Positions 20,002 through 55,457 of a DNA stretch of 59,024 nucleotides are shown here, piece after piece. Source of the stretch: Escherichia phage Utah; sequence record KY014601.1. One strand, given 5' to 3'. Within the stretch, counting starts at the first letter, position 1, and each line of letters begins with the position of its first letter. The notes under the pieces are model-generated. The model saw only the letters and a list, made by a program, of their open reading frames with translations, did no database searches and was not told the DNA's origin. A program made the position numbers and the translations under genes.

Positions 20002-21141
20002 ATGAACGATAACTACCAGAATAACTACGTGGTAGGTCGCGGAACGGTCTACTTTGACCGATTCCAAGACGGCACTAACCGTAAGACAGGTGAAATGTAT
20101 TTCGGTAACACGCCGGAATTCACCATCAACACCGATTCCGAAACGCTGGATCACTACTCTTCTGATCACGGTATGCGCGTGATGGATGCGTCCGTCCTGC
20201 TGGAAGCGTCTCAGGGCGGTACCTTCACCTGTGACAACATCAACGCGGATAACCTCGCGCTGTGGTTCCTCGGTGAAGTATCGAACACCACTCAGACGCA
20301 GCAGACTGACGCGAAAGAAGTGTTCAACCCGATTATGCGCGGCCGTTACTATCAACTCGGCACCACTGACGATAACCCGACGGGTGTTCGCAGCGTGACT
20401 AACTTCCAGATGGTCAAGGCGGACGCGTCCATCGCGATTTCCGTTGGTTCAGGCGACATCACTTCTATCGTGGGTGCCACCGTCGTTAACCCGGCTGGTA
20501 ACTACGAAATTGATCTGGAAGCGGGCCGTATCTACATCGAGCCGGATTCAGCCGACCTCGCGGGCAACGTGCAGATCGCGGTTCAGTACGACGTTGATGC
20601 GCAGAAACGTACGCTGGTCATTGGCAAGTCCAACATGGTGTACGGCGCGCTGCGCATGATCTCCGATAACCCGGTGGGTCTGAACAAGAACTACTACTTC
20701 CCGAAAGTGTCCATCGCGCCGGACGGCGATTATGCACTGAAAGGCGACGACTGGCAGGTCATGTCCTTCACCTTCAAGGCCATGCAGCTTAACAACATCA
20801 CGCAGCGCGTCTACATCGACATCGTCGAAGCGGCCGCAGCGGTTGACCCGACCTCGCAACGCACCATCGAGATCTCGCCTGCATCGACCTCGGCCGCATC
20901 CGGTGGCGCAGGTGTCGTTTGTACGGTGACTGTCCGTGACGGCACTGGCACAGCCGTTCAGGGTGATGCAGTGACGTTTACCACCGTTTCCGGTGCGACC
21001 GTTACGCCTAACAGCGCGACGACCGGGGCTACCGGGACGGCGACCACCACCGTCAACCGTGCCGCCGCTGGTACCGCGACTGTCACCGCCACGCTGGCGA
21101 ATGGCAAAGCGGCCACGACGGGTACCATTACCTTCTCGTAA
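20002..21141 (+). CDS. Major tail tube protein (gpV-like) with C-terminal Ig-like domain
   Basis: 379 aa; C-terminal ~90 aa Thr/Ala/Gly-rich beta-rich segment (VVCTVTVRDGTGTAVQGDAVTFTTVSGATVTP...) typical of Big_2 Ig-like domains; strong terminator follows. Confidence 0.75.
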   Translation: MNDNYQNNYVVGRGTVYFDRFQDGTNRKTGEMYFGNTPEFTINTDSETLDHYSSDHGMRVMDASVLLEASQGGTFTCDNINADNLALWFLGEVSNTTQTQQTDAKEVFNPIMRGRYYQLGTTDDNPTGVRSVTNFQMVKADASIAISVGSGDITSIVGATVVNPAGNYEIDLEAGRIYIEPDSADLAGNVQIAVQYDVDAQKRTLVIGKSNMVYGALRMISDNPVGLNKNYYFPKVSIAPDGDYALKGDDWQVMSFTFKAMQLNNITQRVYIDIVEAAAAVDPTSQRTIEISPASTSAASGGAGVVCTVTVRDGTGTAVQGDAVTFTTVSGATVTPNSATTGATGTATTTVNRAAAGTATVTATLANGKAATTGTITFS

Positions 21142-21160
21142 TACATGCCAAACTGATAAA

Positions 21161-21184
21161 GCGCCTTCGGGCGCTTTTCTTTTA
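21161..21184 (+). terminator. Rho-independent terminator after major tail gene
   Basis: GCGCC-TTCG-GGCGC then TTTTCTTTT. Confidence 0.7.
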
Positions 21185-21237
21185 TCTGCAAGTATGTGCT
21201 ACATTAACGACGGATTAGCGCAAAGGAGATCCGTCAA

Positions 21238-21699
21238 ATGTCATTAGCAGATTACGCACCAGAAATCGAAGAAATCACCATCCCGGCCAGACACGGTAAA
21301 AAGGCTGGCTCGTTTAACGTCCGTGGGCTTTCCTTCCACGACATTTCCAAAATCATCCGCGTCCACTATCACGACCTTGATGGCCTGTTCGACCTGTACC
21401 AGAAGACTGCCGGGGAAGACCTGACGGCCATCGCTACGGGGCGTTTCGCCGTGTCGCTGGTATCGGACGCGCCGGGGCTGGTGGCACATGTCATCGCGCT
21501 GGCCGCCGACGAAGAAGCCGAACTGGAAAAGGTACAGACGCTGCCGCTTCTGGTGCAGTTCGACGCCTTGAAAAAGATTGCTGGTCTGACGTTCTCGGAC
21601 GTTGAAGAAGTAAAAAAGATGTTCGCTCAGGTAATGGAGCAGATCGGCAAGATGAAGGGCGAAGAGGCGGGGTCGAAACCCGGTCAAAGCGCGAAATAG
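21238..21699 (+). CDS. Tail assembly chaperone (gpG-like)
   Basis: 153 aa; directly upstream of tape measure; contains slippery site near 3' end. Confidence 0.6.
   Translation: MSLADYAPEIEEITIPARHGKKAGSFNVRGLSFHDISKIIRVHYHDLDGLFDLYQKTAGEDLTAIATGRFAVSLVSDAPGLVAHVIALAADEEAELEKVQTLPLLVQFDALKKIAGLTFSDVEEVKKMFAQVMEQIGKMKGEEAGSKPGQSAK
21612..21618 (+). other. Programmed -1 ribosomal frameshift slippery heptamer A_AAA_AAG
   Basis: In G frame codons are gta AAA AAG atg; the -1 frame is open from 21612 through 21941 with no stop. Confidence 0.6.
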
Positions 21700-21941
21700 T
21701 TCTCGACTTCCACAATAACCTTCGTGCCACGGTGTCCTTCCTCATGTCCGAGGGACACCCGGCCGCCCGGCATTACCCGTTAGGATATTTGTGGTCAGAA
21801 ACGAAAATCGCGAAGCGCCGGGTAAACGCGGGTTATGTCACCCAAAGTTTACTGATGCAGTCCTGTATCGGCGCTGTACTCAACGGCAAGAAAGGCGGGA
21901 AAGAGTATAAAAAACTAATCAAGGAATTATCTGATGGCTAA
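21612..21941 (+). CDS. -1 frame extension producing G-T fusion tail assembly chaperone (gpGT-like)
   Basis: Open -1 frame after slippery site ends 7 nt inside tape measure gene; ORF track shows only the 21732..21941 part from an internal GTG. Confidence 0.5.
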   Translation, partial: KKDVRSGNGADRQDEGRRGGVETRSKREIVLDFHNNLRATVSFLMSEGHPAARHYPLGYLWSETKIAKRRVNAGYVTQSLLMQSCIGAVLNGKKGGKEYKKLIKELSDG

Positions 21942-24900
21942 CAGTAAAGACGTCGAGCTACGAATCCGGGCGAGGGACTACAGCCAGAAGCCCCTAAAGG
22001 CTGTGACCAGCGCCATTGAGCATATGGCGAAGGCGCAGGACGAACAGCGTAAAGCAGCCGAGCGCGGTGAAATCTCGACGCGTGATCTGGAAGCCGCATA
22101 CAAAAAGCTGGAAAGTGCCGGGAACCAACTGCTTAAACTCAACTCGCTGATCGAGGTGTTCAAACGGCAGAATCAGGCCATGACGGAGGCGACGGCCAAG
22201 ACCGAAGCACTCCGCCAGAAACAGGCCGACCTCCAGAAGACCTACGATGCAACCGCGAATGTTACGCAGAAACAGGAACGGGCGCTGGCCCGGGTAACAC
22301 GTCAGGTCGAAGCCGCAACCCGCGCGGAAGCGAATCAGGCTGATCGCGTGAACCGGGCCGCCCGCGACCTCGAACGATACGGGATCGAGACGTCGAAAGT
22401 TGGGGCGGCCCAAGCGGGTATCATCACCAGCGTCGCGCAGGTTAACCGTGTCCTCGAACGTCAGGACGAAATCATTTCAACGTCTGCTGCTGCGGCCGCA
22501 CAAGCGAAGGTAATTCGTGGATTGCAGCAGCAGGCAGATCAGGCGATGGCGACGGCGCGAGGGTACCAAACCCTCGGCCGCGTGGTGCAGCAGGCAACCG
22601 GGCAACTCGGGCCGCTTGGCACGCAGATCCAGACCATCGTCAGTCCGGCAGAAGCGGCGCGCCGCACGCTGTCCGGCCTTGAGAAGCAGGTACACGGCGT
22701 TACTACCGAACTGGCCCGTAACAGTAAGGAAGTGGAAAACGTCGCTCAGAAAGTCCGAATGCTCAACGAGGCGAATAAAACAGTCTCGGCGCTGGCGCAG
22801 CAAATCGACCTGTACCGCCAGCAGGTGTCAACCCTTCGGAACGCCCGCACTGAATACCAACAAGCGCGACAAGACGTCATCAAGTTAGCACAGCAGATGC
22901 GCACCGCGACAACTGATACGGGCGCTTTAGGTATTCAGATGCAGGCCGCCCAACAACGGCTATCCGCAGCCGCGACGGCCATGCGAAACACGGCCACGGC
23001 CGCACGGTCTACACAAGCCGCATTACGTGCAGCACAGGTGGACACTCGCAACCTGTCCGATGCGGAAGCCCGGCTGATCTCCACCAGCCAACAATCGGCC
23101 GCAGCGCTTAACACGCTGTCCACCGCGACGAACCGGAACAGCCAAGCGGCGCGCGACGGCTCAAAGGCGTGGTCACTGTTCCGGGACGAGGGCCGTACCA
23201 CGTTGTCCTTCCTGCAACGTATTCGCGGTGAAGTGCTGGCGCTGACGACCACTTACATCGGTTTTCAGGGGGCTATCAATCTGGCGGGCGGCGCGATCGA
23301 CGCGTACAAGAACCGTCAGCAGGCGATGGTCAAGATTTCGAACGTGGTGGGTAACAGCCAAGCGGCCATCAACAAAGAGTGGGATTACATGCGCGATCTG
23401 GCGAACACGCTCGGGATCGACATCACCACCTTGTCGCAGTCGTACACGAAATTCGCCGTGTCCGCGAAGGCGGTTGGCCTGTCATTGCAGGACACAAAGT
23501 TCATCTTCGAAAGCGTAGCGAAAGCGGGCCGTGTCTTCCACTTGTCACAGGCCGACATGGAAGGCGTATTCCGTGCGCTGGAACAGATGCTGTCGAAGGG
23601 TCAGGTGTATGCGGAAGAATTGCGCGGCCAATTGGGTGAACGTCTCCCGGCGGCTTTCGCGCTGTTCGCAAAAGGCATGGACATGACCACCGCCGAATTG
23701 ATGAAGGCAATGCAAAACGGGGAAGTCACTGGCGAGGCGGTTATCAACTTCGCCCGCGAGCAGGCCAAAGCGATCGACGCGCAACTCGAAACAGCGCAGA
23801 AAGGCGTTGATGCAATGGAAGCGCGCGCCCGTAACGCCATGAACGCGTTCCAACTGGCATTGGCCGACGCAGGCTTTATCGAAGCGTACGTGCAGATGCT
23901 TAACAAGATCACCGACTTCCTGAACAGCGAGGATGGCCGGGCGGCCGCCGTTAAACTCGGCGAGGCGTTCGGCACGTTGGCCGACGCTGTGACGTGGTGC
24001 ATCGAGAACGTGGACACGCTGATCACCGCGTTAAGCATTCTGGCCGGGCTGAAAGTGGTGCAGTTCATCGGCGGCATGATTTCGGGCCTTAAAAACCTGC
24101 TGCCGCTGTTCAGCACGCTCGGTAAAATCGGCGATGGCATTATCACGGTGCTGGAAGGTGTCGCGGCCAGAATGATTGCGGCACAAGGGGCCGTAGGGCT
24201 TCTCGGCATCGCGTTGAAAGGGCTGACCCGGTTAATCCCGATTGTCGGGTGGGCGCTGCTGGCCTACGACATCGGTGCCATCATGTACGACCAGTCGCAG
24301 ACCTTCCGCGAGGCGGTCAACGCGGTCATCCGGGACTTCAAGAACCTCGGCAATCAACTGGCGGCCGTCGTCGATTCTATCCCGGCGCTGCTGTACGATC
24401 TGGCCGTGTCGGTGCTGCGCCCTATTACCACGATGTTCGCCGACACCACGCAGGCGATTATTAAGTGGATCGCGGATGTCCTGAAACTGATCCCGGGCGT
24501 TGGTCAAGGGCTGTCCGAGTGGGCCACATCCATCGGCGACGACCTGACGAAAGAGCAGCGCGGCTTCCTCGAATCGACTGGCCGTATTTGGGATAACGTC
24601 AATAAGCAGTGGGTGAAACTGAACGACGAAATGGTCGCGAAGAACGCCGATGCGACTGACAAGATTCGCGGGCAGGTCAACCAACTGGCCGCCGACATGG
24701 CCGCTATCACGAAGGGTGATGGCTTCCAGTTCACGCAAGACCCGGGAACAGGCGTCACGAAGCGCAGCCGTGAAATCGCGGGCCTGACGAAAGAACTGAA
24801 CAAGATGGAAGAGGCGGCCAAGAAGGCGGACGTTGCATCGCGTAAAGCCGAACAGCGGAAGAACCTGTCCGGCCGCCTCGCCATCATTGACGAGGAATTT

Positions 24901-26229
24901 GCGCCGCAGTACGCCCGCGCTAAGTCGATTGGCGGCTCGGAGGGTGACGCCCTTACCAAACGTCTTGACGCCGTCGTGGCCGCGCGCAAGAAGGCAGAAA
25001 CGACCCTCTTCAACTCGCAGCAACGTACGACGGGTGGTATCAAGAAACAGGAAAACGCATTACAGGCGCTGATCAACAAGTACAACGAGTTGAATGCTGC
25101 CGTCGGCGTGAAGGAAGTTAAGATTGACCCGAATGCCACGTTTGACGACCGTCTGGCCGCTAAACTGGCCGCCGTCAATACGCAGTACGATCAGCTGATC
25201 GCCAAGTCGAAGAAACTCGGGACTGGCGGGCAGAATCTGGCCGGGCAGTTCGAAGACCTGCGCAAACGCAATCTGGAATACGCGACCACGCAGGCCAAAC
25301 TCGAAGAACTGAAACGCATTGAGGATCAGTTAAACTCGCAGCAGGAGACGAAGAAAAACCTGCTGGACGAAATCAACGCCAAACAGCAGGCCGGGATTAT
25401 CTCCGAAAACGAAGCTGTCGCGCAGACGGTAGCCTTGTATCAGAACATGAATGCGGGCATCGCGTCGTCAGCCGAGCAGCTTGACGTCTTTGCGCAGAAG
25501 ATTAAAGACACGATGTCGCCGGAAGAATTCAGCCGCATCATGGCGCAGATTGCATCCATCAAAGCCGGGCTGGTGGACGTCACAGGCACCTTCACGACGA
25601 TGGACACGACTGTCGTTCAGGGTGTACTGGACGGAATGAGCACGGCGCTGTCATCCATCGTTGATGAAATGGCGTTGGTGGTGGCCGGGTCACAAAGCAT
25701 TGGCGATGCGTTCTCAAACCTCGGCGTGGCCGTGGCACGGTTCTTCGCAGACTTCTTGCAGAAGATCGCAATGGCAATCTTGCAGCAGATGGCGCTCAAC
25801 GCGTTGGCCTCTATGGGGGGTGGCATCGGTTCGGCGGCCGTTGCATTAGGCGGCACCGTGGCGAAACATAACGGCGGCACCGTCGGCAGTAAGACAACTG
25901 GTGGCACGCAGATGAAGGGCGGGATCAGCCCGGCCATGTTCGCGAATGCTCCGCGTTTCCATGACGGCGGCCTGCCGGGCTTGCGTTCTGACGAAGTCCC
26001 GACCATTCTGCAAAAAGGCGAACAGGTACTGTCGAAGGATGACCCGAACAACGTGCTTAACCAGTCGCGCGGCGGCGGCCAGACGGCGCAGTCGCCACAA
26101 GGTCTTCGCTTCGTGCTGGTGGATGACAGGTCGAAAGTGCCGGAAGCCATGAACACGCCGGAAGGAGAAAAGGCGGTGATGCAGATTCTTCAACGCAACG
26201 TACCGACGTTGAAAAACTTAGTGGGATAA
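21934..26229 (+). CDS. Tail tape measure protein
   Basis: 1431 aa; Ala/Gln-rich coiled-coil N-half, hydrophobic Gly/Ala-rich segments; follows G/GT. Confidence 0.85.
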   Translation: MANSKDVELRIRARDYSQKPLKAVTSAIEHMAKAQDEQRKAAERGEISTRDLEAAYKKLESAGNQLLKLNSLIEVFKRQNQAMTEATAKTEALRQKQADLQKTYDATANVTQKQERALARVTRQVEAATRAEANQADRVNRAARDLERYGIETSKVGAAQAGIITSVAQVNRVLERQDEIISTSAAAAAQAKVIRGLQQQADQAMATARGYQTLGRVVQQATGQLGPLGTQIQTIVSPAEAARRTLSGLEKQVHGVTTELARNSKEVENVAQKVRMLNEANKTVSALAQQIDLYRQQVSTLRNARTEYQQARQDVIKLAQQMRTATTDTGALGIQMQAAQQRLSAAATAMRNTATAARSTQAALRAAQVDTRNLSDAEARLISTSQQSAAALNTLSTATNRNSQAARDGSKAWSLFRDEGRTTLSFLQRIRGEVLALTTTYIGFQGAINLAGGAIDAYKNRQQAMVKISNVVGNSQAAINKEWDYMRDLANTLGIDITTLSQSYTKFAVSAKAVGLSLQDTKFIFESVAKAGRVFHLSQADMEGVFRALEQMLSKGQVYAEELRGQLGERLPAAFALFAKGMDMTTAELMKAMQNGEVTGEAVINFAREQAKAIDAQLETAQKGVDAMEARARNAMNAFQLALADAGFIEAYVQMLNKITDFLNSEDGRAAAVKLGEAFGTLADAVTWCIENVDTLITALSILAGLKVVQFIGGMISGLKNLLPLFSTLGKIGDGIITVLEGVAARMIAAQGAVGLLGIALKGLTRLIPIVGWALLAYDIGAIMYDQSQTFREAVNAVIRDFKNLGNQLAAVVDSIPALLYDLAVSVLRPITTMFADTTQAIIKWIADVLKLIPGVGQGLSEWATSIGDDLTKEQRGFLESTGRIWDNVNKQWVKLNDEMVAKNADATDKIRGQVNQLAADMAAITKGDGFQFTQDPGTGVTKRSREIAGLTKELNKMEEAAKKADVASRKAEQRKNLSGRLAIIDEEFAPQYARAKSIGGSEGDALTKRLDAVVAARKKAETTLFNSQQRTTGGIKKQENALQALINKYNELNAAVGVKEVKIDPNATFDDRLAAKLAAVNTQYDQLIAKSKKLGTGGQNLAGQFEDLRKRNLEYATTQAKLEELKRIEDQLNSQQETKKNLLDEINAKQQAGIISENEAVAQTVALYQNMNAGIASSAEQLDVFAQKIKDTMSPEEFSRIMAQIASIKAGLVDVTGTFTTMDTTVVQGVLDGMSTALSSIVDEMALVVAGSQSIGDAFSNLGVAVARFFADFLQKIAMAILQQMALNALASMGGGIGSAAVALGGTVAKHNGGTVGSKTTGGTQMKGGISPAMFANAPRFHDGGLPGLRSDEVPTILQKGEQVLSKDDPNNVLNQSRGGGQTAQSPQGLRFVLVDDRSKVPEAMNTPEGEKAVMQILQRNVPTLKNLVG

Positions 26230-54630: not shown

Positions 54631-54831
54631 ATGTTAATGGCTATTATCTTGATCGGTTATTCAATAATTGCGGCTGTTATATATCACGACGCGCGGGCGG
54701 TGTGGCGTCGCTGTAAGGTTGAGCGCCGTTATTCTTTCGGGCGCAAAACGTTTTATTTACGCGAGCGTAAAACGGGCCGTTTGATCGGCTGTTCAAATAA
54801 TTTTTTCACTCTTCTGTTACAAGGGGCGTAA
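54631..54831 (+). CDS. Small hypothetical membrane protein
   Basis: 66 aa; N-terminal hydrophobic MLMAIILIGYSIIAAVIY. Confidence 0.4.
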   Translation: MLMAIILIGYSIIAAVIYHDARAVWRRCKVERRYSFGRKTFYLRERKTGRLIGCSNNFFTLLLQGA

Positions 54832-54833
54832 CC

Positions 54834-55457
54834 ATGCGTACTATTTCACTTTATACTTTTAATGAACTGTCAGACGTCGCGAAAGCAAAAGCGATCGAAA
54901 ATTACCGCGAATATAAGAGCGGCGATCAATTCGACTTTTCAGAATACAAAGAAAGCCTACGTGAATTTTGTGATGATCTATGCGTCGAGGTGCGCGACTG
55001 GTCATACGGTCTGGGCGGTTGCGATGTTCGCTACGAAATTAATCATAGTTCAGATGTGGAAGATTTATCCGGCGTACGTGCGTACAAATGGATCATTAAT
55101 AATGTTAATGCGTTTAATATGCGTCGCCGCGTTTATCGTGAATACCGTGAAGTCAATAACCACGGTTTTAAACAAAAGGCGTCTTTCGTTAAATGGGTTA
55201 GCGGGGTGTTCAACGCGTCCGACGATTGCCCATATACAGGCGTATGCTATGACGAATCATTATTGAAGCCTTTTCGTGACTTCCTGAAAAAGCCGGATAA
55301 CCGCACGATCGCGGAACTGATACGCGAATCTATAGACGGGTATTGTTCGGATATGCTCGACGAACTGGAAGGCCGCGAAAGTGACGAATATTTACGGGAT
55401 GAACTGGAAAACGGCGACACGCCTGAATTTTTTGAAAACGGCGCTATTTATAACTAA
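54834..55457 (+). CDS. Hypothetical acidic protein
   Basis: 207 aa; D/E-rich throughout (e.g. DELEGRESDEYLRDELENGDTPEFFENG). Confidence 0.5.
   Translation: MRTISLYTFNELSDVAKAKAIENYREYKSGDQFDFSEYKESLREFCDDLCVEVRDWSYGLGGCDVRYEINHSSDVEDLSGVRAYKWIINNVNAFNMRRRVYREYREVNNHGFKQKASFVKWVSGVFNASDDCPYTGVCYDESLLKPFRDFLKKPDNRTIAELIRESIDGYCSDMLDELEGRESDEYLRDELENGDTPEFFENGAIYN

Follow-up and report, generated by a model that had tools for sequence, protein, structure and literature searches.

A conserved A_AAA_AAG heptamer at the tail chaperone locus of Escherichia phage Utah: a probable programmed -1 frameshift of the G/GT class

The closest described counterpart of the element treated here is the gpG/gpGT pair of phage lambda (Levin, Hendrix and Casjens, 1993; Xu, Hendrix and Duda, 2004, 2013, 2014; as summarised in PMC5009743), which is made at a G:GT ratio of 30:1 (PMC5009743). 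Lynch et al. (2012) predicted AAAAAAG for phage AH2 and, in a passage citing Xu et al. (2004), name the same heptamer for VT1-Sakai, psiM2, PVL, PV83, ul36, and a Borrelia prophage (PMC3483164); A_AAA_AAG is no unusual choice for the G/GT class. This heptamer is among the most shift-prone in E. coli, and slippage on it relies on the single hypermodified tRNA-Lys(UUU) (PMC5009743). The best V_VVA_AAG heptamers have been measured at about 0.3% in the absence of stimulators, and a favourable 3' context raised this to as much as about 3.7% (Sharma et al., 2014; PMC4066793). Joined frameshift CDSs are annotated for the phages Chi (gene 23), Enc34, Redjac, Seifer, AH2, Salvo, and Smarc6, and the Salvo record carries a 'slippage point' feature. 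The genome announcements of Utah, Chi, and Seifer and the structure paper on YSD1 leave the frameshift unmentioned in their text.

Utah was announced as a chi-like phage (PMC5374247) and, with the taxonomy taken from its close relatives, is a chi-like siphovirus of the genus Chivirus, family Casjensviridae. Here, we describe the tail chaperone locus in the window, that is, the whole stretch of 59,024 nucleotides of record KY014601.1. The 704-bp region that covers G and T is 100% identical to several records of chi-like Salmonella phages and 96.9% identical to Chi. The features of the locus are as follows.

20002..21141: tube gene (major tail protein), with a Big_1 Ig-like C-terminus
21158..21186, plus strand: terminator-like hairpin followed by a T-run, with an 8-bp stem including 5 GC pairs, AAAGCGCCTTCGGGCGCTTT then TCTTTTATCT
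21223..21228, plus strand: Shine-Dalgarno sequence AAGGAG, read from the sequence, with a spacing of 9 nt to ATG 21238
21238..21699, plus strand: G, the 0-frame tail assembly chaperone (pre-tape-measure protein), 153 aa
21603..21605, plus strand: TGA that closes the -1 frame on its 5' side and bounds the shift window there
21612..21618, plus strand: slippery heptamer A_AAA_AAG, with AAA 21613-15 as P-site and AAG 21616-18 as A-site codon
21618..21941, plus strand: -1-frame part of GT, 107 codons and the stop TAA 21939-41, with G21618 read twice
21732..21734, plus strand: GTG from which many records annotate an independent 69-aa 'hypothetical protein', most likely V166 of GT
21897..21903, plus strand: GGGAAAG decoy, read as GGG AAA GAG in the T frame
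21934..26229, plus strand: tape measure gene, 1431 aa, with the Shine-Dalgarno sequence AAGGA at 21921-25 and a match to TMP_3 (PF20155, E 9e-27)

The genes thus follow each other in the order major tail protein, G, -1 extension, and tape measure, and the Ig-like C-terminus of the first product is typical for tube proteins. G and GT have one start codon in common, ATG 21238, which is served by the AAGGAG sequence. G matches the Pfam family PF23789 (Pre_tape_measure) with an E-value of 3e-54 and 183.3 bits against a cut-off of 27. In the PHROGs family phrog_11703, G takes up positions 1-140 and the -1 extension positions 128-232; since this family was built on the fusion itself and spans both halves of GT, the database agrees with the fusion. 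The -1-frame part of GT consists of a variable linker rich in Arg, Gly, and Glu, followed from about 21687 by a conserved T domain. When the fusion is built conceptually from 21238-21618 (frame 0) and 21618-21938 (frame -1), its 234 aa are an exact sequence match to GenBank APD19345.1, 'tail assembly chaperone [Escherichia phage Utah]'. The public annotation of the Utah genome includes the feature, which was known before and is ordinary for long-tailed phages.

A strong intrinsic-terminator-like hairpin separates the tube gene from G, and Klebsiella phage Seifer has an annotated terminator at the corresponding position. The Utah hairpin would reduce read-through into the G/GT and tape-measure genes, and the ratio of tube to chaperone/tape-measure transcripts may be set by it.

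The original prediction proposed for this locus the tail-chaperone frameshift strategy of lambda-like phages, and the gene order, the phase, the open -1 ORF, the conserved heptamer, and the conserved product all fit it. We estimate a probability of roughly 90% that the locus undergoes programmed -1 frameshifting of the G/GT type (Xu, Hendrix and Duda, 2004), in which a short and a long chaperone are made from one start. Ribosomes would initiate at ATG 21238, and most of them would terminate at TAG 21697-99 to give the 153-aa G, while a minority would shift once AAA 21613-15 occupies the P site and AAG 21616-18 the A site, both tRNA-Lys slipping back one base onto A_AA A_AA. G21618 would then be re-read as the first base of GAT and translation in the -1 frame would run to TAA 21939-41, so that the product would be a 234-aa GT in which a basic, disordered linker joins G residues 1-127 to a T domain of three helices. 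If the two proteins act as lambda gpG/gpGT do, many copies of G and few of GT may coat the tape-measure protein in an assembly role, with the T domain recruiting the tube protein, and neither G nor GT would end up in the virion.

The phase and the reading frames come first in the evidence for such a ribosomal shift. The codons GTA 21610-12, AAA 21613-15, and AAG 21616-18 place A_AAA_AAG in the pattern X_XXY_YYZ, that is, in the correct phase, and the -1 frame contains no stop from 21606 until TAA 21939-21941, with an overlap of 8 nt with the tape-measure ATG 21934; both points had been predicted. The -1 frame begins six bases upstream of the heptamer, behind the TGA at 21603-21605, which sets the 5' limit for a shift 7 nt ahead of the heptamer. 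Because of this TGA on the upstream side and the G stop on the downstream side, the usable overlap of the -1 and 0 frames measures only 91 nt. The heptamer, which is the sole canonical one anywhere in G, occupies the 5' edge of this overlap and precedes the G stop (TAG 21697-99) by 26 codons. Within the overlap, no other in-phase A_AAG or canonical heptamer was found. A G_AAA_AAG at 21570-76 was considered as a shift site and is ruled out by the -1 stop at 21603-05. The lambda-type GGGAAAG at 21897-21903, set aside by the original prediction as being in the wrong context, is indeed unusable, since it lies past the G stop, where the 0 frame that it requires is untranslated.

How often such a site would arise by chance can be estimated from the genome itself. 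A crude set of 68 genes, with about 18,037 codon positions, contains 41 in-phase canonical heptamers (0.23% per codon), so that about 0.07 would be expected by chance in an overlap of about 30 codons. No in-phase A_AAA_AAG other than that at 21612 occurs in the genome, and the -1 extension of this site, 109 codons, is the longest past a 0-frame stop, barring one site at which the -1 frame enters the next gene. Elsewhere in the window, a 66-aa ORF (54631..54831) has an in-phase T_TTT_TTC at 54801-54807, 10 codons ahead of its stop; the -1 frame there is the one used by the next gene (54834..55457, 207 aa), so that a -1 shift would fuse the ORF to this gene, which may be coincidence. In the crude ORF set, in-phase TTTTTTC (28990, minus strand) and GGGTTTA (53570, plus strand) also have -1 frames that outrun the 0-frame stop.

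Heptamer and open -1 frame could still be a product of chance, or an unexpressed relic from which no fusion is made. The genome shows no excess of AAAAAAG as a bare string (10 copies over both strands vs. 6.9 +/- 2.4 in shuffled sequences), no stimulatory structure was found at the Utah site, and the searchable literature on chi-like phages holds no experimental demonstration of the fusion in any of them. However, the low number of heptamers expected in the overlap, the conservation of the same alignment column across genera of diverse hosts, and the purifying selection on the T domain make this explanation extremely improbable. The decisive evidence for a programmed shift is the conservation of its position in relatives, rather than the statistics of a single sequence.

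This conservation was assessed with a tblastn search with G, which gave 232 phage records, from which 21 loci were taken that cover a range from 100% to about 26% protein identity. The chi-like relatives belong to the same family as Utah (PF23789, phrog_11703) and have the heptamer at the same position. A_AAA_AAG is found at the homologous codons in 15 of the 21 relatives, 8 residues after an invariant Leu-Thr-Phe (LTF) motif. In another five, a different canonical heptamer lies in the same phase inside the overlap, namely A_AAA_AAA in FoX4 (with at least seven As), G_GGA_AAC in Salvo, Seregon, and Bhz60, and G_GGA_AAA in PspYZU01. A canonical in-phase heptamer is thus present in 20/21 relatives. 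The only sampled relative without one is Ruegeria phage DSS3-P1, which reads GTG GAA AAG (at about 1590-1600 of the locus) and whose G_GAA_AAG keeps only the A_AAG tetramer, for single-tRNA slippage. The conserved site spans genera that infect Enterobacteria, Aeromonas, Pseudomonas, Burkholderia, Xanthomonas, and Loktanella, and at all 21 loci a -1 ORF of 61-88 codons extends beyond the G stop and reaches the tape-measure start. The shift site is conserved, as had been claimed, and is fixed in position, and the -1-frame product is kept as a protein across the relatives.

The variety of heptamers also bears on another route to the same product, in which RNA polymerase stutters on the run of six As and adds or drops an A, so that some mRNAs encode GT directly. 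Such a homopolymer is present at the site, with at least seven As in FoX4, and the RNA-level route would give an identical protein, so that the two routes look alike in sequence data. Appreciable slippage of bacterial RNA polymerase is known for runs of about 8-9 or more, and the six As of Utah fall below the long homopolymers of transcriptional slippage sites. Moreover, four relatives have G_GGA_AAC or G_GGA_AAA, which contain no long homopolymer and fit tandem tRNA slippage, and the X_XXY_YYZ phase is strictly conserved, while transcription is blind to phase. The occurrence of differing heptamers at one position, all of the form X_XXY_YYZ, therefore favours tandem tRNA slippage over a homopolymer effect, and we regard polymerase stuttering as highly improbable.

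The product of the -1 frame behaves as a protein in its own right. Aligning 17 conceptual GT proteins gave 11 invariant columns, of which five fall in the T part (L169, G173, H174, A177, and Y180), and R163, V166, and S167, also in the -1-frame part, are near-invariant. R163 belongs to a conserved motif, aromatic-x-x-[ILV]-R, upstream of the V166 codon; the sequence of the T domain contains EIVLDFHNNLR and HYPLGYLWSETK. Across the relatives, the identity of T tracks that of G (T vs. G: 0.74 vs. 0.67 for Enc34, and 0.38 vs. 0.44 for MA12), and the synonymous codon identity of T is ordinary in distant pairs. The only substitution between Utah and Chi/SP-039 in the overlap, at 21671, changes G to V in the 0 frame and is silent in the -1 frame. 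Judged from these alignments, the -1 frame is under purifying selection at the protein level.

A protein under selection could also be made from a small gene of its own, with T starting at GTG 21732 or ATG 21744 and the heptamer being coincidental. Several records annotate a 'hypothetical protein' or 'tail assembly chaperone' of 65-69 aa at T, and the ORF listing of the window contains a GTG-started ORF at 21732..21941. Neither start, however, is preceded by an SD-like sequence. The codon equivalent to V166 is GTA, GTT, GTC, or GCG, and hence no initiator, in most of the distant relatives (MA12, pPM_01, BUCT552, FoX4, Salvo, A18P4, and others), and the Met at 21744 is replaced by Leu, Thr, Ile, or Ser in most relatives. 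The conservation of T starts upstream of GTG 21732, at R163, and in every relative the -1 frame is free of stops from the heptamer up to T. A separate gene is very unlikely on this evidence, and GTG 21732 is most likely an internal Val codon of GT.

Within T, the stretch 21638-21937 differs between Utah and Chi or FSL SP-039 at only 1-2 sites, and the flanks differ at 5-11 sites per 100 nt. An extra constraint at the nucleotide level, or a hidden element in T, was rejected on the grounds that distant pairs show ordinary synonymous divergence. Since T diverges normally at synonymous positions in distant relatives, the near-identity looks like a recombination patch and not like a hidden element.

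The original prediction recommended a search for a downstream stimulatory structure, and none is evident. The 82 nt downstream of the heptamer (21619-21700) fold no better than shuffled sequences (z -0.61; local hairpin of -7.9 kcal/mol), the fold of 21580-21760 is not significantly more stable than its shuffles (z -1.44), and RNAalifold gave zero consensus pairs over 13 relatives. A conserved downstream stimulator in the Chi group was rejected on these z-scores and the lack of consensus pairs. Upstream, no SD-like stimulator was found in Utah; the best duplex with the anti-SD sequence, between -20 and -4, has -4.1 kcal/mol and is near the gene background (mean -2.3, minimum -9.5 kcal/mol). 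The earlier description of the slippery sequence as dnaX-type holds for the A_AAA_AAG heptamer and fails for the rest of the dnaX cassette, its upstream SD and downstream stem-loop; with neither stimulator evident, only the heptamer is dnaX-like. As no stimulator was detected, the efficiency of the Utah shift could be very low. The range of about 0.3-3.7% for V_VVA_AAG heptamers fits the ratio of about 30:1 in lambda, and for Utah itself we infer low-level shifting, as in lambda G/GT.

Predicted stimulators are found in some of the relatives. In the three with G_GGA_AAC, a hairpin of -21 to -24 kcal/mol is predicted to start about 7 nt after the heptamer (in locus coordinates, 1515-1565 in Salvo, 1593-1643 in Seregon, and 1569-1619 in Bhz60), and A18P4, PspYZU01, and FoX4 have strong SD-like G-rich tracts just upstream of it.

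Across the relatives, stimulators seem to vary with the strength of the heptamer. A tentative idea, to which we give less than even odds, is that exchanges of heptamers and stimulators tune the G:GT ratio across the family, which would then form a natural series. Its members would be the Utah/Chi group with A_AAA_AAG, where a stimulator is undetected, the Salvo clade with the weaker G_GGA_AAC and a hairpin, A18P4, PspYZU01, and FoX4 with their SD-like tracts, and DSS3-P1 with only G_GAA_AAG. If the combinations were to give similar fractions of GT, this would point to compensatory evolution of recoding signals under a fixed stoichiometric need. It is mildly interesting that heptamer and apparent stimulators vary across the family, with the position being fixed.

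The main value of the analysis lies in the quality of annotation. Many chi-like genomes list T as a separate hypothetical protein of 65-69 aa, and the correct model would be a joined CDS that shifts at A_AAA_AAG. In matched public records, the single name 'tail length tape measure protein' is often given to G, T, and the tape measure alike, and one of these records names the tape measure 'smc: chromosome partition protein'. As a further example of the conserved G/GT strategy, the locus adds no new principle.

The fold of the Utah proteins was approached with predicted structures. AlphaFold2, run on the GT alignment, gave a model with a pLDDT of 77.6, in which the G domain has two short strands and helices, followed by a disordered linker (124-147) and a three-helix T domain. 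Foldseek against viral models returned members of the family and, marginally, GT of phage N15 (E 0.024). The best structural match to the predicted G fold is the HK97 tail assembly chaperone (PDB 2OB9; 86/104 residues aligned), and the fourth-best is YqbN of a B. subtilis prophage (PDB 3KLU; 90/119 residues aligned). At the level of sequence, nothing significant was found among solved structures, and G showed no homology to a profile of lambda gpG (hhalign probability 0.1%). The missing match to the gpG profile lowers the case for a gpG homologue by sequence and leaves untouched the view that the element works like G/GT. The element would work like G/GT and probably shares the chaperone fold, and it is not a sequence homologue of gpG.

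The Utah site has the identical A_AAA_AAG heptamer as E. coli dnaX and the IS3-family elements IS911 and IS150. In dnaX, an upstream SD-like element and a downstream stem-loop accompany the heptamer, neither of which is detectable in Utah, and the shift, which occurs at a very high frequency of about 50%, truncates the product, whereas the Utah shift would extend it. Unlike in lambda, the heptamer is A_AAA_AAG instead of G_GGA_AAG, the distance from the site to the G stop is 26 codons compared to about 5 in lambda, and T is a predicted family-specific three-helix domain with an EGH...A..YPLG motif. Utah resembles lambda G/GT in having no obvious RNA stimulator, and it has the same gene order, a single start codon for both products, an in-phase X_XXY_YYZ heptamer that ends in AAG and is decoded by tRNA-Lys, and a T ORF whose end overlaps the start of the tape measure.
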